Source: a phage
Direction: 5' to 3' (one strand)
Sequence record: PX421306.1
Length of the DNA: 64,000 nucleotides
The notes below the pieces were generated by a model. The model searched no databases, was not told the origin of the DNA, and worked only from the letters and a program-made list of their open reading frames with translations. The position numbers and the translations under genes were made by a program. The first letter of the stretch is position 1, and the number at the start of each line of letters is the position of its first letter. Shown here piece by piece: positions 33,249 through 44,392 of this stretch.

Positions 33249-35306
33249 CTACATCTTGAACTTTTTAGACATTCCATTGATGTTAACCAAAGAAGCCAAG
33301 ATTTGAGAAACTTCGTTTTCCTCTTCTTTTGATTCTTCTACAAGGAATTGATTAAACCCAGCCATTGGACGAACTTCACCAGTTTCCATCAGATGGTCGC
33401 CATCATATACCGATTCTTCTAATTGTTCAGAAGGAGGAACGATTGTGCCTTCGATTAGATACTTGTTATAAGCAGTTTCTTTCATCATGTACGTACTCAC
33501 TTTATTAATCTTCAGCAAAATTCCACGTGGTAAAATAACTTCAGCTTCTGATGGAAATCCTGATAAATGTCCTGGAACGATAACTTTGATTCGCTCAGCT
33601 CCTTTAATTACCATACCCACGCTAGTTTCAGCATCTTCATTAGCATATGCAGAATGACTGCCCATATGCATTAAATCTTCAGCATCAACAGAACCTTCTC
33701 CTTCACCAGAAAATACTGCACCGGAATCATCTAGAGCCATATAGTTTTTACCATACTCACCGAAGATATTTGGTTTAAGCGATGTGGATACGAAGTTCTT
33801 GAAATAAAACATTTTATTTTCAATATTATGACGTAAAGTTTTAAAGGTAACTTCTTGTCCACGATAAAGTGTAGTTCCTGGAGGAAGAACTGATCCTTTG
33901 GCAAAGGCAGAATCCATTGTCTCGATGTGTTTAATAGCTCGTTCCATGTATTCTTCACGGGTAGAATCTGGTTTACCCAAGAGGAACGAGTTCATTTCAA
34001 CATATGAATCTGCACAATAATCTTCAATTACATCAGACTCAGCCTGAGTTAATCCTTTTGGGGGTACTTCAGTACTTGCGTATTCATATGCCTGAGCAGC
34101 AGATTCATTAATCAATTTATAAATGCCATTCATGACAAATTGAATAATAGCTACTTTTTCGTCTGGCGTGGCTTTAGAACCTTTAACTAAATCATTGATA
34201 ATTTTCTTAATAACATCAAAGCTATTAGAAATATTAATGTCAGCGAGATCGCTTAAAATTTTATCGGTTTTATAATCAAAGAATTCTTTATTCTTTAAAT
34301 ATTCTTGAGAACCTTGATATGTTATATCGCTCTGTAACTTGATAGATGGATCACGTAAACGTGCATGAGCCAATGCAATATGATTTCGGAAGCTTTCTAG
34401 TTCATAATCGTTAGATTTAAAACGAGAAGCACTCCTCATACCACTGATAGCTCCTTTGCTGAAGTTTGAACCGACCTGAATAACGCCAGAGTTCATTGGT
34501 CCTTCTGCTTTATATACCGGAACTTTAGATTCAAACTCTTGATATTTCTTAGCAGCGAAGCTATCGCCCTGAAGTGAAGCATCGACAGTAGAGTATTGAG
34601 CTTGTGCTGCTAATCGACGACTAATTTTAGTTTTCTGAATAACAGCTTGATCCGTGCGCTTATCATTTTCTAAGGCAATAGAAGCAGCGACAGCAACAGC
34701 TTTAGGAACAGCATTACCTGTTTTAACATCTACATAAACATCACCAACCTTTGATTCAACTTTTGTGAATAACTCAGTTGAAATAGGAGGTACACCTGGA
34801 ATGTCTTCTAAATTAGCATTTTTACGGTAAACCATAATATATGCATATTTCTTATCATAGTCCCAGATTTCCTTTAAAAGAACATATCGACCTGCTCCTT
34901 TAGTACGTACTAAACGGTCAGCAATAACTTGCATTTGACGAGCAGCGCCATTTGTTTTACTTTTTAGTACGCGGAATAGGCATGCATCAATTTTATACTG
35001 TTTCATTGTTTGAAGAGCAGTATCAAAAACCGCATTAATGACACCAATTGGATTTCCACCTAAGTTTTTAAGTTTAACTAATGATAGCTTTTCATTGACA
35101 CCTATCATTACGATATGCATCATTTTATCGCCTGGCTTAACGTTTTTATTCGTATCACCGCCAGAGGTGTATGTACAAAATCTAAATCCAGGAAGCACGC
35201 TTTCTTCACCCGCTTGAATAGCAAAAATTTGAGGTATTTTATGCTTAGGATTTAAGTTAACAACCGGCGCCGAAGCGCCGTCAAATAATTCTGTAATAAG
35301 TTCCAT
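33249..35306 (-). CDS. Alt-family mono-ADP-ribosyltransferase paralog (685 aa)
   Basis: N-terminal 'MELITELFD' shared with the upstream paralog; C-terminal R-S-E ART signature ('YRGQ', 'VSTSL', 'EAEVILPRG'). Confidence 0.8.
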   Translation of the reverse strand: MELITELFDGASAPVVNLNPKHKIPQIFAIQAGEESVLPGFRFCTYTSGGDTNKNVKPGDKMMHIVMIGVNEKLSLVKLKNLGGNPIGVINAVFDTALQTMKQYKIDACLFRVLKSKTNGAARQMQVIADRLVRTKGAGRYVLLKEIWDYDKKYAYIMVYRKNANLEDIPGVPPISTELFTKVESKVGDVYVDVKTGNAVPKAVAVAASIALENDKRTDQAVIQKTKISRRLAAQAQYSTVDASLQGDSFAAKKYQEFESKVPVYKAEGPMNSGVIQVGSNFSKGAISGMRSASRFKSNDYELESFRNHIALAHARLRDPSIKLQSDITYQGSQEYLKNKEFFDYKTDKILSDLADINISNSFDVIKKIINDLVKGSKATPDEKVAIIQFVMNGIYKLINESAAQAYEYASTEVPPKGLTQAESDVIEDYCADSYVEMNSFLLGKPDSTREEYMERAIKHIETMDSAFAKGSVLPPGTTLYRGQEVTFKTLRHNIENKMFYFKNFVSTSLKPNIFGEYGKNYMALDDSGAVFSGEGEGSVDAEDLMHMGSHSAYANEDAETSVGMVIKGAERIKVIVPGHLSGFPSEAEVILPRGILLKINKVSTYMMKETAYNKYLIEGTIVPPSEQLEESVYDGDHLMETGEVRPMAGFNQFLVEESKEEENEVSQILASLVNINGMSKKFKM

Positions 35307-35309
35307 GAT

Positions 35310-37406
35310 TTATCCTTGAACGAACTTGTAAGGCATGTTTGTAATATCTATGCAAGACGCAATAATTCCAAGAGATGATTCTACTTTCTGTTTAACGTTT
35401 GATGAAACAAATGATGCAAAGTCAACTCTGTCTTCTACTTCAATATCACCTGTCATTGCAACTACTTCGCCGGTTTCCATTAGACGGTCACCGTCATAAA
35501 TGACTGATTCGGTGAGTTCTTCCGTAGTCATAACTTCAGCTTGAATGAGTTTTGTGTTATTAGATGTTGTTCCGTCATTATTAGAAGCATCAGTTATTTT
35601 ATTAACTTTGACCATCAATCCGCGTGGTAGAATAACTTCAGCTTCTGTTGCTATTCCGAGACTTCCTGGATATACAACATTAACTTTATGAGCTCCATCA
35701 ATTGCCCATCCTATTTGAACTTTAACGTATTCAGGATTTTCTTTATACGCTCTTATTTCGCTTGGATTAATAGTTATTCCTTCTTCATTTTTATCAACTG
35801 TTAATTCATTGCGAACTTCTGGTTCTAAAAGACCAATACCAGCATGTGTAATTCCAAAACGTCCAAAAATGATAGGAGTTAAAGAAGTAGATACAAAATT
35901 TCTGAAATAGAACACTTTATTTTTAACTAGTGCTTCGTATATAGGAGCAGTCATACTTTGAGCACGATAAACTGTAATGCCTTCTGGTATACGGTCACCG
36001 TTTTCAAAAGCTGAATCTAAGTTATTTATAGCAGATTCAATTTCTTTTTCACTCATTACATCATATCGTTCTGGATTGTAACGACCCAAAAGAAGATTAT
36101 TGATGTCAGTATATCCTGAACCACAATACTCTCTAATGCCGCGCTTTTGTGATGGAGTATATTTAGAACCATCACGGGCAATAGTAATATCAATCATTGG
36201 ACCTGCACCAATTCCAGAAAAGCTATAAATCATTCTTTTAAGGAATTTAGTTTTTGCTGCGTTCCAGGAATTTTTAGTTATTTCTTCCCAGACTTCATCT
36301 GGCTGTCCTTTACGGGTTTTATTATGTTTATCAAGCCAATTATCTTTATATTCTTCAAAGAATTGATTAACAGCTGCTGCGTATTTCTCTAAACATTTTA
36401 TTGAAGTGGTTGGTTCATTTTTAATCGCATTAAGAATTACATCTTTAATTTTTTCAGAAACTTCATTAACCTCACTTTTTGAAAAGAATTTATAGTCATA
36501 GTGAAGTTCATCTGCGGTTCCTTCGGCAATGATTTTTGCTGCCTTAGTTTTAGAAGCTAATGAATTAATTCCAAGCTTCATTTCTTCTGCTTCGGGAATT
36601 AAAGGAGCTGTAGCAGGTTTATTGAAATTAGCTGCGGTAGATTCATATTTCTGGAATAATTCACTTTCAAATCTAGAAGATTCCAATGACTGACTTTGCG
36701 CAATTGCTCTACGGGAAATTTTAACTTTAACGATTACAGCTTGGTCAGAACGTTTATCGTTTTCTTGCGCAATAGATGCCGCAATTGCCTCATTTTTAGT
36801 TACTTGAGCTCCAGTATCTTTATTGATATAAACATCGCCGACTTTCGATTCAACTTTAGTAAAGAGCTCGGTACTAATTTCCGGAACTCCTGGAATGTCT
36901 TCTAGTGATACATTTTTGCGATGTATAAGAATATATGCATACTTTTTATCGTAATCCCAGAGTTCCTTAAGAAGGACGTATCTGCCACCTGAACGACTGC
37001 GGATAAGTCTATCAGCAATAACTTGAATTTGTCGAGCTTGACCAGCAGTTTTAGACTTAAGAATACGAAGCATACAGGCATCAATTTTATACTGACGCAT
37101 CGTTTGCATCGCAACAGTAAAAACTGAATTGATGTAATTAATTGGGCTTGGACCGAGACCTTTCAATTTAGCAATTGAACCTTTAGCAGTTAATGTAAAA
37201 GGAACAATGTGCATCATTTTATCGCCCATCTTTAGATCACGGTTAGTATCACCTCCAGATGTATAGGTACATAAACGAAAGCCTGGTTGTTCAATTGCGT
37301 CATCAACATGAACTGAAAAAATTTGTGGTATTTTCTTCTTTGGATTTAAGTTTGTAATCGGAAGAGTAGTATCTTCGTCAAATAATTCTGTAATGAGTTC
37401 CATCAT
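35310..37406 (-). CDS. alt: Alt ADP-ribosyltransferase (698 aa), adjacent to the ligase operon
   Basis: Same N-terminal leader and R-S-E motifs ('VYRAQ', 'VSTSL', 'EAEVILPRG'); late promoter box upstream; which paralog equals T4 alt is uncertain. Confidence 0.8.
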   Translation of the reverse strand: MMELITELFDEDTTLPITNLNPKKKIPQIFSVHVDDAIEQPGFRLCTYTSGGDTNRDLKMGDKMMHIVPFTLTAKGSIAKLKGLGPSPINYINSVFTVAMQTMRQYKIDACMLRILKSKTAGQARQIQVIADRLIRSRSGGRYVLLKELWDYDKKYAYILIHRKNVSLEDIPGVPEISTELFTKVESKVGDVYINKDTGAQVTKNEAIAASIAQENDKRSDQAVIVKVKISRRAIAQSQSLESSRFESELFQKYESTAANFNKPATAPLIPEAEEMKLGINSLASKTKAAKIIAEGTADELHYDYKFFSKSEVNEVSEKIKDVILNAIKNEPTTSIKCLEKYAAAVNQFFEEYKDNWLDKHNKTRKGQPDEVWEEITKNSWNAAKTKFLKRMIYSFSGIGAGPMIDITIARDGSKYTPSQKRGIREYCGSGYTDINNLLLGRYNPERYDVMSEKEIESAINNLDSAFENGDRIPEGITVYRAQSMTAPIYEALVKNKVFYFRNFVSTSLTPIIFGRFGITHAGIGLLEPEVRNELTVDKNEEGITINPSEIRAYKENPEYVKVQIGWAIDGAHKVNVVYPGSLGIATEAEVILPRGLMVKVNKITDASNNDGTTSNNTKLIQAEVMTTEELTESVIYDGDRLMETGEVVAMTGDIEVEDRVDFASFVSSNVKQKVESSLGIIASCIDITNMPYKFVQG

Positions 37407-37426
37407 ATCCTCTCTAGTGTTTATTC

Positions 37427-37434
37427 TATTTATA
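37427..37434 (-). promoter_or_regulatory. Late promoter box TATAAATA (minus strand) upstream of alt
   Basis: Plus-strand TATTTATA is TATAAATA on the minus strand, about 20 nt upstream of the alt ATG with a GAGAGG ribosome-binding site between. Confidence 0.5.
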
Positions 37435-37440
37435 AAATTA

Positions 37441-37456
37441 AAGGCCCGAAGGCCTT
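37441..37456 (-). terminator. Terminator hairpin at the end of the ligase operon (AAGGCC-TTCG-GGCCTT on minus strand)
   Basis: GC stem with tetraloop overlapping the stop of the 62-aa ORF, followed on the minus strand by a T-rich run. Confidence 0.55.
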
Positions 37457-37644
37457 TAATAATCTAGTGGTAAGAGAGTACGATATATTTCAAACTTTGG
37501 ACCTTTTTCGTAGGCATCAAATGTTTCTGTAAATTTATTATAAGCATATGCATCTACAAATTCGAGAACGATTTGTGATACAGAAGTAGAAACATCTCCA
37601 CCTTCTTTTTGAGCAACGACAATTGTTTCTAAGTAAGCTTTCAT
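37456..37644 (-). CDS. Hypothetical protein, 62 aa
   Basis: Small ORF coupled to the DNA ligase stop (overlap at 37641-37644). Confidence 0.5.
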   Translation of the reverse strand: MKAYLETIVVAQKEGGDVSTSVSQIVLEFVDAYAYNKFTETFDAYEKGPKFEIYRTLLPLDY

Positions 37645-39104
37645 AGACCAGTTACCTCATGAAAATCACCAAATACATCCTCGAATGTATTAGCTTTAGT
37701 TTTATCTTCACGTAAACGAATCGCAATTGGAAGAAATAATTTTACGTAATCAGTGCGGCCATCAGATTTTAACCAACCGTTGCATTCGCACTCTAGAATT
37801 TTTCCAATATAATAATTTTGGTTTTCCATAATGCGAGTACGGTCAAGTTCATGCGATTTTACACCGGCTTTATCTTTTAAACCTGAACCAGCATTTACTT
37901 TAATTTTTCCACACTCTGATTCAAGAATAAATCCACCTGCTTTAGTAGGGTCTTTACGGTGAGGATAAATTCCTACAATTTTTAAATCAACATCAATTAC
38001 TTCTTTAAATTTATAGAGATTTTTTGAACGAGCATTTTCCCACAATCCATCGGTATTTTTGAGAATAATACCTTCAAGACCTTGGTCAATATACTTTTTA
38101 TAAATTACCTTAGCTTCATCTAGGTTATTTACTACCTGGTTTTCAATTAAAATTACTTTATCATATCCTGATGTCATTTGTTCTAGTTTAGAAAAACGTA
38201 CATCATATTTTAAACGAAACGCCGGAAGACCGTATATTTCTACCAACGGGACATAATCCCAGACCTGAAACTTCATGCATTGAGCTTCTTTTTCAGAAAT
38301 GGTTCCTTTTAAGGATTTATTGGCGATTCCATTAGAAGTAGTACGAGATTCCGCTACTTCGGCGAATTCTTTAGCTTTACTAATTTCAGGATAAGCATCA
38401 AAAAGAAAATCTAGGCCTTCTGGTTCCTTTTTAACTTGCTCATGGTATACCAATTCGCCATCAATTAACACACCTTCTGGATGAATCTGGCGGGCTTCAG
38501 CAGTCATTTTGATTAACTCTTCCTTAAGAAGATCTAATCCTAGATATTCATTACCAGCTCGTGATAAAAGACGAACATCATCTAATTCATCGCCTCGGAC
38601 TTCAGCAAAACACCGAGCTCCATCTGCTTTTAACTGTGCAAAGGCTGGAAATTTGATATTCTTACTAATGCCTTTTTCATCATAAGAACTTGCCAGCATT
38701 TGAGGTTGTTCAGGAATTAAACCTGGCCAAACTTTGTTTGCAATAGATACTGAAGCACCGCATTCAAGGTCTCGCATCATAACTCGACGCAAAACTTCAA
38801 CATCATCCTTTTTACCATCGGTGATATATCCAGTCAATTCCTCAATTGCAGCATTTCCGGTCAATTTCCGAGTAGCTAACGTGAATTCAATGAAGTCAAG
38901 CATATCGGTAATAGTCAGCATTCCAAAACTCTGGGTAGCAATACCAGGTTTAGGCCATTTCTTGATATAATACTGTAACCCACGAGAATAAGTCAGACGA
39001 TATACCCGTTTAAGCAATTCATTATCTTTATTCTTTTCAAGAATTGCTTGCTTCTGCTTAGTTGATCCAATAGATGCTATTTCATTCAGAATTTTAAGAA
39101 TCAT
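37641..39104 (-). CDS. 30: ATP-dependent DNA ligase gp30
   Basis: 487 aa, the T4 ligase length; adenylation motif 'KADGAR'. Confidence 0.95.
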   Translation of the reverse strand: MILKILNEIASIGSTKQKQAILEKNKDNELLKRVYRLTYSRGLQYYIKKWPKPGIATQSFGMLTITDMLDFIEFTLATRKLTGNAAIEELTGYITDGKKDDVEVLRRVMMRDLECGASVSIANKVWPGLIPEQPQMLASSYDEKGISKNIKFPAFAQLKADGARCFAEVRGDELDDVRLLSRAGNEYLGLDLLKEELIKMTAEARQIHPEGVLIDGELVYHEQVKKEPEGLDFLFDAYPEISKAKEFAEVAESRTTSNGIANKSLKGTISEKEAQCMKFQVWDYVPLVEIYGLPAFRLKYDVRFSKLEQMTSGYDKVILIENQVVNNLDEAKVIYKKYIDQGLEGIILKNTDGLWENARSKNLYKFKEVIDVDLKIVGIYPHRKDPTKAGGFILESECGKIKVNAGSGLKDKAGVKSHELDRTRIMENQNYYIGKILECECNGWLKSDGRTDYVKLFLPIAIRLREDKTKANTFEDVFGDFHEVTGL

Positions 39105-39370
39105 TGCTCATCCTTCAAAGTTTGATTTACAGCTCTATTATAAATCAATTCATCATTAAGCTCAGTCAAAGACCTATGATATGTAGTTCTAACTTTATTT
39201 CCTTGCATCCAATGCTTGATATAAATGAAACCTTGCTCTACACATTTTTTAAAAATTCGTTCGTCTTTTTGAGCTCGGAATTCTGGATTGCATCTAAAGA
39301 ATTGATTTACGTGACCGTAATCACGTGTAGTATTACCTTCATTTTCATAAATAGTGTGAACGACAAACAT
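39101..39370 (-). CDS. Hypothetical protein (30.1 position)
   Basis: 89-aa ORF, start overlapping the upstream gene stop. Confidence 0.6.
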   Translation of the reverse strand: MFVVHTIYENEGNTTRDYGHVNQFFRCNPEFRAQKDERIFKKCVEQGFIYIKHWMQGNKVRTTYHRSLTELNDELIYNRAVNQTLKDEQ

Positions 39371-40233
39371 TAGAATGCTCCTTGGAAAATATTATCACCA
39401 CTAGTAAATCTATTAAAATACCCTGCATCACCAGGCTTAGTATAACTCCACGTATGGAATGGATTCATATGATACGGGTGTGTATAATATGGATTATATT
39501 GATGTGTATAATATGGATTATACGGATTAAATCCAGGAGTTCTCCAGGTAGTGTTCCAACGAAAAGAATCGTTTTTAACCATCTTCTCAATTACATCTTT
39601 TATAGCTTTTTCACTATCAAAACTTTCTTTATTTTCCTTCGGTGAAAAAAGCTTATTTTCTACATCATTCCATGTATAAACTCGCTGCGCAGTTTTTGGA
39701 ATATTGTCACGCTCTCCTCGAGCCATCCAATAAACAGGAACATTTAATATTTCACTCGCGTGGTCACAGTGGTGAGCGAGATCGTCAATATAACAAATTA
39801 CGTTATATTTCTCTTTTGCCTTTTTAAACAACTCTTCTTTTGAAGAATCATGACCACACATCATTACTTCTGAGAAGGCACCAGGAAAAAGAGCATTCAA
39901 ATTAAATTGACGATTCAACAGAGCGTCAATAGAATCACCCAATGCTGTAACAGCTACAAAATTATAATCTTCTTTTAATTTGTTAATTACACACAGGGCA
40001 TCTTTATATGGAGACAAGTAACGAATAAAATCTGAACGATTGTATTTTTCAATTAACTTGACGCCAAGTTCTTCATCACAATTAAAGAGTTTACCTGGAG
40101 AAATAAATTTCTCATCTTGGATCATTTTTAAAATATGTTCTAACGGAAGATTATATTTCTGAGCAAAATAAGGAAGGCCTGATTGCCAGCTTAAACATAC
40201 TCCATCAATATCAGTCAAAATAGTTGGCTTCAT
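39370..40233 (-). CDS. HAD-superfamily phosphatase-like protein with Tyr/Pro/Asn-rich C-terminal tail (30.2 position)
   Basis: N-terminal HAD motif I 'DIDGV'; C-terminus has repeated 'YNPYYTH' units encoded by a DNA direct repeat. Confidence 0.65.
   Translation of the reverse strand: MKPTILTDIDGVCLSWQSGLPYFAQKYNLPLEHILKMIQDEKFISPGKLFNCDEELGVKLIEKYNRSDFIRYLSPYKDALCVINKLKEDYNFVAVTALGDSIDALLNRQFNLNALFPGAFSEVMMCGHDSSKEELFKKAKEKYNVICYIDDLAHHCDHASEILNVPVYWMARGERDNIPKTAQRVYTWNDVENKLFSPKENKESFDSEKAIKDVIEKMVKNDSFRWNTTWRTPGFNPYNPYYTHQYNPYYTHPYHMNPFHTWSYTKPGDAGYFNRFTSGDNIFQGAF
39480..39522. repeat. Direct repeat, 2 x 19 bp (GTGTATAATATGGATTATA) separated by 5 bp
   Basis: Two identical 19-mers at 39480-39498 and 39504-39522 inside the 3' part of the HAD-like gene. 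Confidence 0.85.
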
Positions 40234-40688
40234 AGAGAGTCTCTTAATAGGTTTAACACATCAATAAATTCAGCTTCGGTTAGTATTGTATCATCTTTTG
40301 TTAGACCACTAGCCATGCTGTGCTTCAAAACTTTTCCTTTCGAGGCTTGTAATGCATCACGAAAGCCCCTGTTTTGGATCGCTGCTTCAAAATATGCATT
40401 TGTGTATAATTCTTTCCACGCCGGGGAGTATCTTGAAAACGGAACTCCAAGCCAGAAGAGGGTCCCACGGTCCTGAGCTCTAGCATAAGACCTTCCAGCT
40501 TGTTGGGCGGCAAGCCCGGATAACCCAAATATACGTCTTTGCTGTTCAACATTTTTCACCTTACATCCTTGGAGGAATCCTTCGAGACCTCCAAATTGGA
40601 TACCATCCATAACGAAAGGCCATTGGGCGAAATTGCTTAATGCACATGATGGCCATCTAAAATTGCTTCTAATCTCTAATTCAGACAT
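40230..40688 (-). CDS. YbiA/NADAR-like (DUF1768-type) protein (30.3 position)
   Basis: 152 aa; 'LSNFAQWP...DG' resembles the E. coli YbiA 'FSNFAAWP...DG' signature, recalled from memory. Confidence 0.55.
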   Translation of the reverse strand: MSELEIRSNFRWPSCALSNFAQWPFVMDGIQFGGLEGFLQGCKVKNVEQQRRIFGLSGLAAQQAGRSYARAQDRGTLFWLGVPFSRYSPAWKELYTNAYFEAAIQNRGFRDALQASKGKVLKHSMASGLTKDDTILTEAEFIDVLNLLRDSL

Positions 40689-40896
40689 CTTTAATACTTA
40701 TAATTTCAACATCAGCCCAATAACCGTAACCCGGTAAACGGTCTTCAATAGATAATCTGCCATCATATTTAAGCATTTTAATTGTCATAATATATGGCTC
40801 TAAATGGTCTTCTGTGAGAGGAGAAACGTCAGTCACACGATAAGTAACTTCGACCATTTCCGTGCCCAGTAATTTCTGGATTAATTTCTTAAACAT
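40681..40896 (-). CDS. Hypothetical protein, 71 aa
   Basis: Small ORF overlapping neighbours by a few nt in the 30.x-like cluster. Confidence 0.55.
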   Translation of the reverse strand: MFKKLIQKLLGTEMVEVTYRVTDVSPLTEDHLEPYIMTIKMLKYDGRLSIEDRLPGYGYWADVEIISIKDV

Positions 40897-40900
40897 TTTA

Positions 40901-41188
40901 TTAAAATCTCATCTGAAAACCGTGTGATTTAACATTACCGCCGCCGATATCAGAAATGTTAATTTCACGCGCAATTGAAGGGTCAATATCAATTTCACGA
41001 TTGAGTTTAGTGATAGCTAAAGTATCACGCCCATTTACAGTACGGAACTCTAAAGGGCAGACTACATTAACGTAGTTTTTAATTGATTCACTGGTAGGTT
41101 GCAAATGAGCAGGAAGGTCTTTAGGTGCCTTAGAGAAAACCACTTCACAGAAATTTTTGCGGGTATCAAAATAAGTAGTCATAAACAT
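40901..41188 (-). CDS. Hypothetical protein, 95 aa
   Basis: ATG preceded by a GAGGAAAA ribosome-binding site; no recognisable motif. Confidence 0.55.
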   Translation of the reverse strand: MFMTTYFDTRKNFCEVVFSKAPKDLPAHLQPTSESIKNYVNVVCPLEFRTVNGRDTLAITKLNREIDIDPSIAREINISDIGGGNVKSHGFQMRF

Positions 41189-41205
41189 AGTATTTTCCTC
41201 AGTAA

Positions 41206-41219
41206 GGGGCCGAAGCCCC
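41206..41219. other. Intercistronic GC hairpin (GGGGC-CGAA-GCCCC)
   Basis: Perfect 5-bp GC stem with tetraloop between two minus-strand ORFs; T-run on the plus side only. Confidence 0.35.
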
Positions 41220-41229
41220 TCATTTTATT

Positions 41230-41595
41230 TTAAATATCAAATTCGTTAAGAACTACATCAAAGATCGCTTCAAGATGCTCAGGTTTAGCTCTGTTACTCA
41301 GAATATGACGAATCCAAGTTTTAACCAGAAGCTTACGATTGACGCCATTCCAGCAAGGATGAGTACCTAAATCGCGTTGACGGAAATCATCATCTAATGC
41401 GATTTTAAAAGAAGAACCTTCTTTCGTGATTGAAACCGTGATGCCATTTTCAAATCGCATATAAACGTAGTTAGGAGTCATATACTGTTCAATTTCGCAT
41501 ACTGATCCATTTTGATGTTTCCAAAGGCAGATAGTATCAATAGAACCTGCAATACCATTAGAAACATATTTACGTTCAAAGTTGATGTAGTTCAT
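41230..41595 (-). CDS. Hypothetical protein, 121 aa
   Basis: ORF in the 30.x-like accessory cluster. Confidence 0.55.
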   Translation of the reverse strand: MNYINFERKYVSNGIAGSIDTICLWKHQNGSVCEIEQYMTPNYVYMRFENGITVSITKEGSSFKIALDDDFRQRDLGTHPCWNGVNRKLLVKTWIRHILSNRAKPEHLEAIFDVVLNEFDI

Positions 41596-41663
41596 TTTTA
41601 TTCTCCGAGATGTTTAATTGCGGTACAGGTATATAATATCATATCCTGTACCAAAGTAAACAA

Positions 41664-41996
41664 TTATTTTACTACTTTCCAATGTTGCATGTCAAGTTTA
41701 CCAACTTTTTTCATCTTCTCAATTAAGCGTTCGGCACGTTGGCGGGCTGTAACATAATACCATTCACCCAATTCATTTTGTTCAATTTTTCCAACGATTA
41801 CTGTATTCAATTCATAAATCCAACCAGTAAAGAAATTATGAACTTGGATTGTAAAGGTGAAATCTGTTCCCATACCTTCTGTTGTTTCTACTTCAATAAT
41901 ATCACCTTCAACTGCCATTAAGAACCACATAGTTTCATCATATTTACCATTGAAGCATTTAGTTTTAACTGTAGCGTTCAGATTAATCGTTTTCAT
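41664..41996 (-). CDS. Hypothetical protein, 110 aa
   Basis: ORF with a sigma70-like promoter candidate upstream (TTTACA, 17 nt, TAGTAT on the minus strand). Confidence 0.55.
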   Translation of the reverse strand: MKTINLNATVKTKCFNGKYDETMWFLMAVEGDIIEVETTEGMGTDFTFTIQVHNFFTGWIYELNTVIVGKIEQNELGEWYYVTARQRAERLIEKMKKVGKLDMQHWKVVK

Positions 41997-42083
41997 TTTA
42001 TTCTCCTTTGTTTGTGTAAGATAATACTATCACAAAGGAGCCATACTGTAAACAACTTTATGCAATCTTTGGAAAATAAAAAA

Positions 42084-42101
42084 GGACTCCCGAAGGAGTC
42101 C
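42084..42101 (-). terminator. Rho-independent terminator (GGACTCC-TTCG-GGAGTCC then T-run on minus strand)
   Basis: 7-bp stem with tetraloop followed on the minus strand by TTTTTTATTTT, directly after the small basic ORF. Confidence 0.75.
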
Positions 42102-42106
42102 TCAAC

Positions 42107-42283
42107 TTATGCTTTCTGCTTACCAAAACGAGAAGCATCATCTCGAAGAACCGCACGTGCTCGGCGCATGATCTTCTCAACAGTTTGATTGATACGAGAG
42201 TTCGACCCACGCTTGTAACCAGCGCGTTTAGAATCACCAACTTTCTTTTCAACTGCTTTCTTTGCTTTAGCTTGTTTTGCCAT
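42107..42283 (-). CDS. Small basic protein, 58 aa (30.9 position)
   Basis: ATG at 42283 begins MAKQAKAKK; Lys/Arg-rich; the longer track ORF from 42325 has no better ribosome-binding site. Confidence 0.5.
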   Translation of the reverse strand: MAKQAKAKKAVEKKVGDSKRAGYKRGSNSRINQTVEKIMRRARAVLRDDASRFGKQKA

Positions 42284-42477
42284 TATAAATTCTCTTTTAA
42301 ATGAAAATGCAGGACTTATTGGCATTGCCTGCGCAAGCCCTCAAGGGGAACATAGGTTTTATATATTTACCGACAGGATAACCATAAACCTCGTCAACAT
42401 TCAAGAGGTACACCGTAAAACAAAGTTCGACGGCTCCTCGTTTTAACTTCACACTAAGGCAGTGACTCTCCAATAAA

Positions 42478-42726
42478 TTACTTCAGTGTTACCACAAAGT
42501 GACGAACTGCTTTTCGTGCGGCAGAAGCCAGAGGCTTAGCATATTTAAGTTCATCTTTTTCCTGAAGCTCAGCAGCTAATGCAGTTTGAGCAGGATTCAG
42601 ATGTTTGAAATAACGCAGGATTTCAAGTGCTTCGGCTTCAACATCAATAGATGCGCCATAGTTTTCGTGACCATTATTCCATGCGTTTCGTTGCAGTTCA
42701 AGAGCGTGTTGTAATTGTTTAATCAT
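42478..42726 (-). CDS. rIII: Lysis inhibition accessory protein rIII
   Basis: 82 aa, the T4 rIII length; position between the 30.x cluster and gene 31. Confidence 0.75.
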   Translation of the reverse strand: MIKQLQHALELQRNAWNNGHENYGASIDVEAEALEILRYFKHLNPAQTALAAELQEKDELKYAKPLASAARKAVRHFVVTLK

Positions 42727-42865
42727 TTAAAAATTCTCGTTAGAGATTAAAACTCGGTAGTCACGTTCTTCTGAATTTCATCTTCTTTCGACAGATCTCT
42801 CAGTTGTAGACTACCACATAGAATTGTTCGGTTAACTTATTATTCCGACACCCAATTCATATTAT

Positions 42866-42873
42866 TATTTATA
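42866..42873 (-). promoter_or_regulatory. Late promoter box TATAAATA (minus strand) downstream of gene 31
   Basis: Exact minus-strand TATAAATA just after the gene 31 stop, about 140 nt upstream of rIII. Confidence 0.3.
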
Positions 42874-43209
42874 TCACTTATAAAGACACGGAATAGCTTT
42901 ATAGTGACAGGTAACGAATTTTTGTTTAATTTCTTTTGGCTGCTTAAGACCCAGAGCTACAAAAGGATGAGGAACGTTTCGAATTTGACCAACTGGAAGA
43001 GAAGTCAAATCACCAACTTCGCAGAAACCTTCAGGAACATCAGGACCAACAGAGTGAACTACACACAGTTCAGGAACTTCACCTTGGACACGTTTACCGA
43101 TAATAAGTCCTGATTCTGTAACTTCTTCATCACCAGCTTGTGCAGGTTCAGAAACTAAAATAACATATTCACCGACAGCACGAATTGGTAGCTGTTGTAC
43201 TTCAAACAT
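42874..43209 (-). CDS. 31: Co-chaperonin gp31 (GroES analogue)
   Basis: 111 aa, the T4 gp31 length; synteny rIII-31-cd. Confidence 0.9.
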
Positions 43210-43239
43210 CGTTTTTCCTTTTTGTTAACAGATGAATTA

Positions 43240-43264
43240 ATAATAACAAATAATTCTTAAAGCA
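43240..43264 (-). promoter_or_regulatory. Candidate MotA-dependent middle promoter for gene 31
   Basis: Minus strand has MotA-box-like AATGCTTTA, a 12-nt spacer, then TATTAT, about 30-55 nt upstream of the gene 31 ATG. Confidence 0.4.
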
Positions 43265-43265
43265 T

Positions 43266-43574
43266 TTATTTACCAATAAATTGAAGCAAATGCTCAACTT
43301 TCATACCATTAACGGAAATCAATTTGTCAATAGAAAAACCTCGCCATGCACCAAGCTCAACATCAAATACTGGAATCATATCAGTAGATTCTTTCCGAGT
43401 AGATTCAGTCAATTTACCGGTTTGCATGGTTGGCATAAAGTCTGCATCACGAGTACCTTTCATAGTACGAATAGTACCATCAGACTTTTCAAAAACCACG
43501 TTTGAAATACCCATGGACAATTTAGTTTTCAAAATTTCACGAATTGCTACTTTCTGTTCAGTTGTCAGTTTCAT
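43266..43574 (-). CDS. Hypothetical protein (31.1 position)
   Basis: 102-aa ORF. Confidence 0.6.
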   Translation of the reverse strand: MKLTTEQKVAIREILKTKLSMGISNVVFEKSDGTIRTMKGTRDADFMPTMQTGKLTESTRKESTDMIPVFDVELGAWRGFSIDKLISVNGMKVEHLLQFIGK

Positions 43575-43811
43575 TTATTTACCTATTACAGTTTTAATAT
43601 GGGTTGTTCCACGTTCTTTAAGAGTGGAAAGCAATTTTTGGCATTTTTCTAAATCAGATTTCCAACTATACGGCCTATCAATACAAACCCATTCTGACTT
43701 ATAATACTGTTTCCATTTAGAGAAAAAATACTTCTTATACTCTACAGCAAATGAAATGTTCTCGTTAGAATAAGAACTAATTGCTGTGAGCTGTACCAAA
43801 CGAAATTTCAT
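43575..43811 (-). CDS. Hypothetical protein (31.2 position)
   Basis: 78-aa ORF coupled to the cd stop. Confidence 0.6.
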   Translation of the reverse strand: MKFRLVQLTAISSYSNENISFAVEYKKYFFSKWKQYYKSEWVCIDRPYSWKSDLEKCQKLLSTLKERGTTHIKTVIGK

Positions 43812-44392
43812 TATTCACCACAGAATTCGTTGATATTTTCCCAGTTTAACTTATTCAAGTTTTTCTTAGGAACATTAAACACTTCAATACCTGCATTTCG
43901 CAGAATATCATCCCAGCCAGGTTTATTCTTATCGTATGTTTCGCAATAAACCAGCTTTTTAATACCAGATTGAGCTATCGCTTTTGCACAATCTGGGCAA
44001 GGAGAAAGTGTTACATACATAGTAGCACCTTCAATTGAAGAACCATTTCGCGCAGCAAACAAAATCGCATTTAGTTCAGCATGAATTTCATTTTTAGACG
44101 ACCACTCAGAGTGAGCACTACGATGTTCTTTCGCCAAGACAAAACGATCAGTTGAACCAAATGATACACATTCAGGCTTATGACCTTGAATGATAGTATG
44201 TTTAGGCTTATTTAGCAACCAACCTTGCTCAACAGCATAATCGCAGCAATTCACACCACCTGCAGGTGAACCATTATATCCGGTAGAAATAATACGTCCA
44301 TTCTTTTCAATTACCGCTCCTACCTTCCAGGAGCAACATTTTGATTCTTGTGATACTAAATATGCAATTTGAAGTACTGTACTCGCTTTCAT
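43811..44392 (-). CDS. cd: dCMP deaminase
   Basis: 193 aa, the T4 Cd length; zinc-binding deaminase motifs 'HAE' and 'PCPDC'. Confidence 0.9.
   Translation of the reverse strand: MKASTVLQIAYLVSQESKCCSWKVGAVIEKNGRIISTGYNGSPAGGVNCCDYAVEQGWLLNKPKHTIIQGHKPECVSFGSTDRFVLAKEHRSAHSEWSSKNEIHAELNAILFAARNGSSIEGATMYVTLSPCPDCAKAIAQSGIKKLVYCETYDKNKPGWDDILRNAGIEVFNVPKKNLNKLNWENINEFCGE

Follow-up and report, generated by a model that had tools for sequence, protein, structure and literature searches.

[quoted passage not shown] T4 and T2 cannot form plaques on DarTG1 cells once adfN is deleted, and RB69, which is sensitive to DarTG1 because a one-base insertion shortens its AdfN by 15 residues, is fully rescued by ectopic adfN (PMC11825919). 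Purified AdfN strips ADP-ribose from DarT1-modified DNA, which the variant E36A does not; E36A, K43A and an RB69-like truncation of the C-terminus all lower the function of T4 AdfN, E36A and K43A abolishing the rescue in vivo only partly, and DarTG2 is unaffected by AdfN (PMC11825919). In vitro, the T4 protein hydrolyses guanosine-ADP-ribose and leaves thymidine-ADP-ribose intact (PMC11125620). The phage clade had been recognised earlier as a NADAR family in which a His replaces the family-defining Glu/Asp (PMC11125620, PMC11543638). The residue that marks each type is His in phage NADARs, Glu in the YbiA type and Asp in the DarG1 type (PMC11125620, PMC11543638, PMC12945103). YbiA itself hydrolyses guanine-linked ADP-ribose (G-ADPr) in vitro and is a housekeeping N-glycosidase encoded in a LexA-controlled operon (PMC11125620). 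DarT1 toxicity in uninfected E. coli is not rescued by T4 AdfN (PMC11125620), and the phages T5 and Bas25 are rescued weakly (PMC11125620, PMC11825919), so that de-ADP-ribosylation of DNA by the protein alone is an incomplete account of events in vivo and some T-even factor or context is required. Hypermodification of the DNA has been ruled out as the reason for this T-even dependence of AdfN-T4, and an additional T-even protein was proposed (PMC11825919).

Here we analyse a gene in a window of 64,000 nucleotides of phage DNA (sequence record PX421306.1). With a probability of roughly 0.93, it is the ortholog of T4 gene 30.3, adfN, and encodes a minimal single-domain NADAR that counters DarTG1 by de-ADP-ribosylation of DNA. 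Our analysis bases this assignment on orthology and sequence identity, the fold, the conserved catalytic residues and the intact reading frame. In the corresponding mechanism, the toxin DarT1 of a host DarTG1 system would ADP-ribosylate guanine in the phage DNA, by which replication would be blocked. AdfN would hydrolyse the N-glycosidic bond between ADP-ribose and guanine (guanine-N2 linkage), releasing ADP-ribose and leaving normal DNA, on which replication could proceed. Catalysis would use the conserved ribose-binding pair Glu36/Lys43 together with the clade-specific His123, and the C-terminal helix would be required for full activity. The gene is already known and experimentally characterised in T4, and no new biology is added here.

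Reading frame, gene order and identity

The features of the locus are as follows.

33249-35306, minus strand: Alt-like ADP-ribosyltransferase, 685 aa (PF03496, E=3e-20)
35310-37406, minus strand: Alt-like ADP-ribosyltransferase, 698 aa (PF03496, E=6e-38)
37641-39104, minus strand: DNA ligase gene
39370-40233, minus strand: gene 30.2, 287 aa, predicted HAD phosphatase, 5'(3')-deoxyribonucleotidase-like, with a disordered Tyr/Pro/Asn-rich tail
40230-40688, minus strand: adfN (gene 30.3), predicted phage-type NADAR DNA ADP-ribosylglycohydrolase (open reading frame, PF08010, T4 identity, AlphaFold2 model, NADAR fold)
40233-40277, minus strand: C-terminal alpha-helix of AdfN, residues 138-152 (helix 138-151 in the model), intact here
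40320-40322, minus strand: His123 codon, in the last beta-strand (residues 120-123 of the model)
40560-40640, minus strand: core NADAR motif LSNF...DG...EGFLQxxK, residues 17-43 (conservation, YbiA alignment)
40560-40562, minus strand: codon of the catalytic Lys43 (codon checked)
40581-40583, minus strand: codon of the catalytic Glu36 (codon checked)
40681-40896, minus strand: gene 30.4, 71 aa, phrog_2042 (ORF list, junction sequence)

In the list of open reading frames, adfN starts with ATG and encodes 152 amino acids followed by a stop; the N-terminus of the product is MSELEIRSNFRWPSCALSNFAQWPFVMDGIQFGGLEGFLQGCKV. The gene of 152 codons that had been predicted at this position is a real one, as supported by its Pfam match, by its presence in 1511 phage records (tblastn) and by a substitution bias towards third codon positions. 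The match to PF08010 ("Phage_30_3") spans profile positions 1-138 of 138 with E=5.1e-70 and 234 bits (cut-off 36). When adfN is compared with the 81%-identical gene of VR5, 54 of the 88 nucleotide differences fall on third codon positions, an excess characteristic of a coding sequence on which purifying selection acts. An internal out-of-frame reading frame, 30.3', was considered as a second gene and set aside as probably being without selection of its own: compared with VR5 it shows 60% identity, against 83% for gp30.3 across the same bases, and RB69 has an interrupted copy and Acj61 none.

The gene lies within a tightly packed series of minus-strand genes in the order known from T4, 30.4, 30.3, 30.2, 30.1 and 30. 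The stop of gene 30.4 overlaps the start of adfN by 8 nucleotides (AAAGATGTCTGA), which suggests translational coupling, and the adfN stop overlaps the start of gene 30.2 via ATGA. The placement of adfN downstream of the DNA ligase gene, as originally described, holds in plus-strand coordinates only; because all genes are on the minus strand and the coordinates of adfN are higher than those of the ligase gene, adfN is transcribed before it and thus lies upstream. T4-like NADARs are early genes (Iyer et al.), and by analogy adfN would be expressed early together with its neighbours. A scan of positions 37000-44000 with promoter and terminator consensus sequences returned 26 promoter-like sites against 25.9 expected and is therefore uninformative.

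The product is identical to T4 gp30.3 (NP_049816) at 150 of 152 positions and has the same length, the only two differences being the conservative changes R107K and M125I, with M125 as the consensus of the family. In tblastn, Shigella phage ESh17 encodes a product with 100% identity. The phage is itself a Tequatrovirus (T4-like): this region shares 95-98% identity with many Tequatrovirus phages that infect Escherichia and Shigella, and over 22 kb it is closest to phage vB_EcoM_IME339 (98.0%). Most of the 1511 phage records with adfN come from T4-like phages that infect enterobacteria, Klebsiella, Aeromonas, Acinetobacter and Vibrio, and among 1.84 billion representative proteins searched with a profile, 1655 clusters matched with E<=0.001. 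The product also matches phrog_652 of PHROGs, where the function is given as unknown, and the description of PF08010, 'Bacteriophage protein GP30.3', is an annotation pitfall in that it names no function. Nearly all of the phage records annotate the gene as 'hypothetical protein', and some sources name relatives 'YbiA'.

That a DarT-type toxin is the target of this counter-defence gene, as the original prediction had it, is supported by the 99% identity of its product to a published anti-DarTG1 enzyme, T4 AdfN, and by analogy with that protein the allele of this phage is expected to have the same activity and the same phenotype. The phage carries an intact adfN and is thus predicted, in contrast to RB69, to withstand abortive infection of the DarTG1 type. 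This is of use for host-range prediction, for the choice of therapeutic phages and for annotation, as most GenBank records still read 'hypothetical protein'.

NADAR fold and catalytic residues

Membership of the AdfN product in the NADAR superfamily is clear, although a plain Pfam scan does not reveal it. A profile search against NADAR/DUF1768 had been proposed as the check, with a missing hit counting against the assignment; PF08719 (NADAR, formerly DUF1768) does not match the product at E<=1, and this test, taken literally, would have misfired. The missing match is an artefact of model partition, since Pfam models the phage clade separately as PF08010. No NCBIfam model matches gp30.3 either, and a phmmer search of the PDB with the single protein gave only a spurious match to an ATP pyrophosphatase (E=0.57). 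The YbiA/NADAR-like nature of the product is nevertheless borne out by profile-profile comparison, by cross-matches between the families and by the fold. A profile built from an alignment of 46 family members (A1) matches E. coli YbiA (2b3w) in an hmmsearch of the PDB with E=0.003 across the motif region. PF08719 cross-matches are found in only 5/46 and 6/49 family members, the best with 1.5e-7, and in the reverse direction several YbiA-type proteins carry precomputed PF08010 matches. When the gp30.3 profile was aligned by hhalign with a YbiA/PF08719 profile derived from a 33-sequence alignment, a probability of 97.1% and E=6e-11 were obtained over 125 columns, and the alignment pairs LSNF with FSNF, DG with DG, E36 with E48 and K43 with K55 (gp30.3 and YbiA, respectively). 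Against one bona fide NADAR sequence the hhalign comparison of the family profile was not significant (E=0.14), with the register being correct.

Structure prediction, which had also been suggested, agrees with this assignment. The AlphaFold2 model of the product (pLDDT 92.4, pTM 0.87) consists of seven helices and paired short strands and thereby has the fold of YbiA, an alpha-helical core with small flanking beta-sheets. Foldseek finds exactly three PDB entries with a probability of at least 0.99, and all of these are NADARs: YbiA (2b3w; the best fold match with E=3.6e-5 and TM 0.68), a Phytophthora NADAR with ADP-ribose (8bau) and the DarG1-type NADAR of Geobacter lovleyi (8bat); the remainder have probabilities of <=0.06. 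In BFVD, gp30.3-like phage proteins with TM 0.87-0.94 rank first, ahead of dozens of annotated NADAR domains from giant viruses and phages.

Residues 16-43 of the product (ALSNFAQWPFVMDGIQFGGLEGFLQGCK) contain the core motif, which aligns with FSNF...DG...SEHYFQAQK of YbiA. The signature originally read from the sequence was LSNFAQWP, DG and FQ; the first two occur literally, while an FQ dipeptide does not, its counterpart being F38-L39-Q40, which corresponds to YFQ of YbiA. Among the 46 family members, L17, S18, N19, F20, E36, G37, F38 and Q40 are invariant and K43 is conserved in at least 90%, and H123 is likewise invariant in A1. The hhalign alignment sets H123 beside the VEH segment of YbiA, with LKHSM here and VEHTE in YbiA; as H123 is only adjacent to VEH, the exact residue equivalence is not fixed by this alignment. 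The published RB69 frameshift is confirmed: the RB69 gene is annotated with 137 amino acids, and the C-terminal helix 'EAEFIDVLNLLRDSL' is encoded there in a shifted frame. The adfN frame of the phage described here is intact at the site of the inactivating RB69 frameshift, and E36, K43 and H123 are all kept.

Gene 30.2 and possible alternative roles of AdfN

The T-even dependence of AdfN directs attention to its immediate neighbour. gp30.2 has no Pfam or NCBIfam match. The D8-x-D10-G11 motif is invariant in 38 relatives, the gp30.2 profile matches the mouse 5'(3')-deoxyribonucleotidase (2jao) with E=0.012, the AlphaFold2 model has a core with pLDDT >90 and 60-90 disordered C-terminal residues, and Foldseek returns HAD enzymes, with deoxyribonucleotidases as the best matches of low rmsd and high target TM. 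These data indicate that gp30.2 is a putative HAD-superfamily enzyme. In two of 49 multidomain gp30.3 relatives, P0313 and P0283, a gp30.3-type NADAR is fused to a PF06941 NT5C domain (E=1.6e-16), and their domain order from N to C is the order of genes 30.3 and 30.2. P0313 is a genuine open reading frame; on its metagenomic contig it belongs to an ADP-ribose/RNA-repair gene cluster with genes for an ADP-ribosylglycohydrolase, a PF08719 NADAR, RtcB and two phosphatases. P0212 was rejected as a further fusion of this kind, since its DxD motif comes without a recorded NT5C match; the second fusion is P0283. The fusions, which are rare in nature, hint that a NADAR and a HAD nucleotidase or phosphatase can act together, and they make gp30.2 a weak candidate for the T-even cofactor of AdfN.

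That gp30.2 is the T-even-specific factor behind full AdfN activity in vivo is a long shot, and the evidence points in both directions. In its favour, the ATGA overlap could couple the translation of both genes, and the order 30.3-30.2 is kept across T-even relatives and in some relatives of 43-46% identity. Against it, 61 of 80 diverse viral gp30.3-like loci have no gp30.2-like gene within 6 kb; among the 19 loci that do, the gene is adjacent in 14, nearly all of them close T-even relatives. The similar distribution of gp30.2 (1440 phage records) and adfN (1511) mostly reflects synteny of the T4-like core. Moreover, P0313 and P0283 are related to each other, and the fused NT5C domain resembles gp30.2 in motif I only (E=0.009). 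The gp30.2 family profile gave one marginal match among the 49 multidomain relatives, P0313 with E=0.006; gp30.2 and the fused NT5C domain are thus not closely homologous. Moreover, NADAR has many other fusion partners, among them ASCH, DUF6939, SLOG and LRR. If the candidate role is true, adfN, gp30.2 and the adjacent DNA ligase would form a small cassette that cleans ADP-ribosylated DNA or nucleotides.

The contig of P0313 bears also on the substrates of AdfN. These could mainly be soluble ADP-ribose derivatives, such as immune signals or toxins, or ADP-ribosylated RNA, in which case the protein would counter other NAD-based defences with DarTG1 as one target among them. Iyer et al. have been cited in support of such a role, NADARs of all four families remove G-ADPr from RNA (PMC12945103), the NADAR-NT5C fusion is encoded near an ADP-ribosylglycohydrolase, a second NADAR, the RNA ligase RtcB and phosphatases, and T4 AdfN protects uninfected cells poorly (PMC11125620, PMC11825919). 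However, loss of adfN results in a complete and specific sensitivity to DarTG1 and the purified enzyme acts on DNA (PMC11825919), and soluble substrates have been shown for no member of the phage NADAR clade. We regard this role as improbable, if the most serious competitor to DNA de-ADP-ribosylation directed against DarTG1.

The position of adfN near the alt genes could be explained if AdfN erased or tuned the ADP-ribosylation that is carried out by the phage's own Alt, its Alt paralog and ModA/ModB. The two Alt-like genes do lie 2.8 kb from adfN, in agreement with the few kilobases originally claimed, and alt, ligase, 30.2 and 30.3 are also linked in Acinetobacter phage Acj61. This linkage is absent at the loci of Klebsiella phage Mineola and of a Rhizobium phage, and the Alt proximity thus has no demonstrated functional meaning; it is lineage synteny, kept in T4-like phages only. 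Alt and Mod enzymes target protein arginine, and ModB also RNA, and it is established that guanine is not among their targets. A co-expression with ADP-ribosyltransferases was noted by Iyer et al., but NADAR activity has so far been found on nucleobase-linked ADP-ribose, namely on guanine and, for some non-phage NADARs, on cytidine (PMC11125620, PMC11543638, PMC12945103), and the known phenotype depends on the host DarT (PMC11825919). An Alt- or Mod-directed role is accordingly very unlikely.

Still more remote is a YbiA-like function as a housekeeping N-glycosidase on intermediates of the riboflavin pathway: YbiA is the best fold match and its name is used by some sources for relatives, but AdfN belongs to a separate phage clade in which His replaces the YbiA-type Glu, it shares 18% identity with YbiA, why a lytic phage would need such an enzyme is not evident, and the T4 phenotype is anti-DarTG1. 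Equally little speaks for a decayed, inactive allele like that of RB69: natural inactive alleles do occur, as with the RB69 frameshift, and several database entries are truncated, but the copy here is of full length without a frameshift, has all catalytic and invariant residues, and differs from T4 by two conservative changes only, of which M125 is the family consensus. The preferred reading is that of an active AdfN which removes ADP-ribose from DNA modified by DarT1.

Comparison with known NADARs and DarTG1 antagonists

DarG1, for example 8bat or the NADAR of E. coli C7, has been reported as the clade closest to the phage NADARs and shares with AdfN the fold and the removal of guanine-linked ADP-ribose from DNA. 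It adjoins the DarT1 toxin gene, has an N-terminal extension and an Asp at the distinguishing position, and protects uninfected cells, whereas AdfN is an orphan of 152 aa with nothing beyond the core domain, carries a His instead and leaves uninfected E. coli unprotected. In line with this, the six flanking proteins of the locus described here, including those of the neighbours 30.4 and 30.2, have no DarT-like Pfam match, the product has His123 in place of the Asp, and its TM normalised to the 219-aa 8bat is 0.46, the N-terminal extension of the DarG1 type being absent. YbiA (2b3w) shares the fold and the LSNF...DG...E..FQ..K motif with AdfN, from which it differs by an overall identity of 18% and by the Glu in its last strand; here, the corresponding strand has a His, and the context is an early gene cluster of a lytic phage rather than a housekeeping one.

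Other phages counter DarTG1 by related or by different means. AdfN-Bas32 of a T5-like phage and AdfN-Bas60 of a member of the Vequintavirinae are also orphan phage NADARs directed against DarTG1; unlike the T4 type, they belong to other NADAR clades, were independently acquired and neutralise DarT1 without infection (PMC11825919). AdfA (gp61.2) is likewise an anti-DarTG1 factor of T-even phages, but it is unrelated in sequence, is encoded elsewhere in the genome and binds DarT1 instead of reversing the modification enzymatically (PMC11825919). Compared with T4, the phage described here lacks gene 30.5, carries a second full-length Alt paralog and has a 10-aa insertion in the gp30.2 tail. With T4 AdfN it has the locus order, the catalytic residues, the C-terminal helix and the length of the protein in common.

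Gene 30.2 and the fusions of gp30.3-type NADAR domains

The gene next to adfN (gene 30.3 of the phage) is usually annotated as hypothetical:

39370-40233, minus strand: gene 30.2, 287 aa

Its product is predicted to be a phosphatase of the HAD superfamily with closest likeness to 5'(3')-deoxyribonucleotidases, as judged from a DxDG motif, a profile match to 2jao and Foldseek. The C-terminal tail of gp30.2 is disordered and rich in Tyr, Pro and Asn, and compared to T4 gp30.2 it contains ten additional residues (YTHQYNPYYT).

Among the relatives collected by the gp30.3 profile search, P0313 and P0283 combine a gp30.3-type NADAR domain and an NT5C (PF06941) HAD domain in one natural polypeptide. 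The P0313 fusion is encoded on the following locus:

L087, 6001-6993: fusion ORF of P0313

Other genes on this contig encode ADP_ribosyl_GH, a PF08719 NADAR, a gp30.3 fragment, RtcB, PTP-NADK and LMWPc, a set that looks like an ADP-ribose/RNA-repair cluster. Some further matches of the search carry two or three NADAR domains in tandem, and others contain ASCH, DUF6939, SLOG (YpsA), LRR or lipase partner domains (multi-NADAR or fused members taken together: P0195, P0197, P0211, P0214, P0253 and P0281).

The internal reading frame 30.3' and the length of gp30.3

An out-of-frame ORF lies within adfN and is the counterpart of the 75-aa 30.3' of T4:

40325-40552, minus strand: internal ORF 30.3'

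The window, T4 and VR5 all keep this frame open, whereas RB69 has a stop within it and the Acinetobacter phage Acj61 lacks the frame. ORF 30.3' is conserved to 60% while gp30.3 reaches 83% over the same bases, so the internal frame is unlikely to be a gene under selection. The methods of an in vitro study describe the construct of the "E. coli T4 phage NADAR (gp30.3)" as residues 1-208 (PMC11125620), whereas T4 gp30.3 comprises 152 aa (459 nt).

Surroundings of adfN compared to other T4-like phages

A strong terminator-like hairpin is placed between the positions of 30.9 and 30.8 and perhaps marks where the transcription unit containing adfN begins:

42082-42103, minus strand: hairpin with a 9-bp stem, GAGGACTCC-TTCG-GGAGTCCTT, followed by a T-run

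T4 gene 30.5 is missing from the window (site 40896-40901), so that 30.4 (40681-40896) directly precedes 30.6 (40901-41188); RB69 shows the same arrangement, while VR5 carries 30.5 and an additional ORF at this site.

A gp30.3-like NADAR gene is also present in the Klebsiella phage Mineola (Jiaodavirus):

L003, 4001-4450: gp30.3-like NADAR gene of Mineola

It is located inside a tRNA gene cluster, distant from ligase, 30.2 and alt, and the NADAR gene has therefore relocated among accessory regions in different T4-like lineages.

The window furthermore encodes two full-length, tandemly arranged Alt-like ADP-ribosyltransferase paralogs (PF03496):

33249-35306, minus strand: Alt-like paralog
35310-37406, minus strand: Alt-like paralog

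Two are also annotated in several close relatives. RB69 has a single alt and T4 a single alt accompanied by alt.-1 and alt.-2, the remnants of an old duplication.
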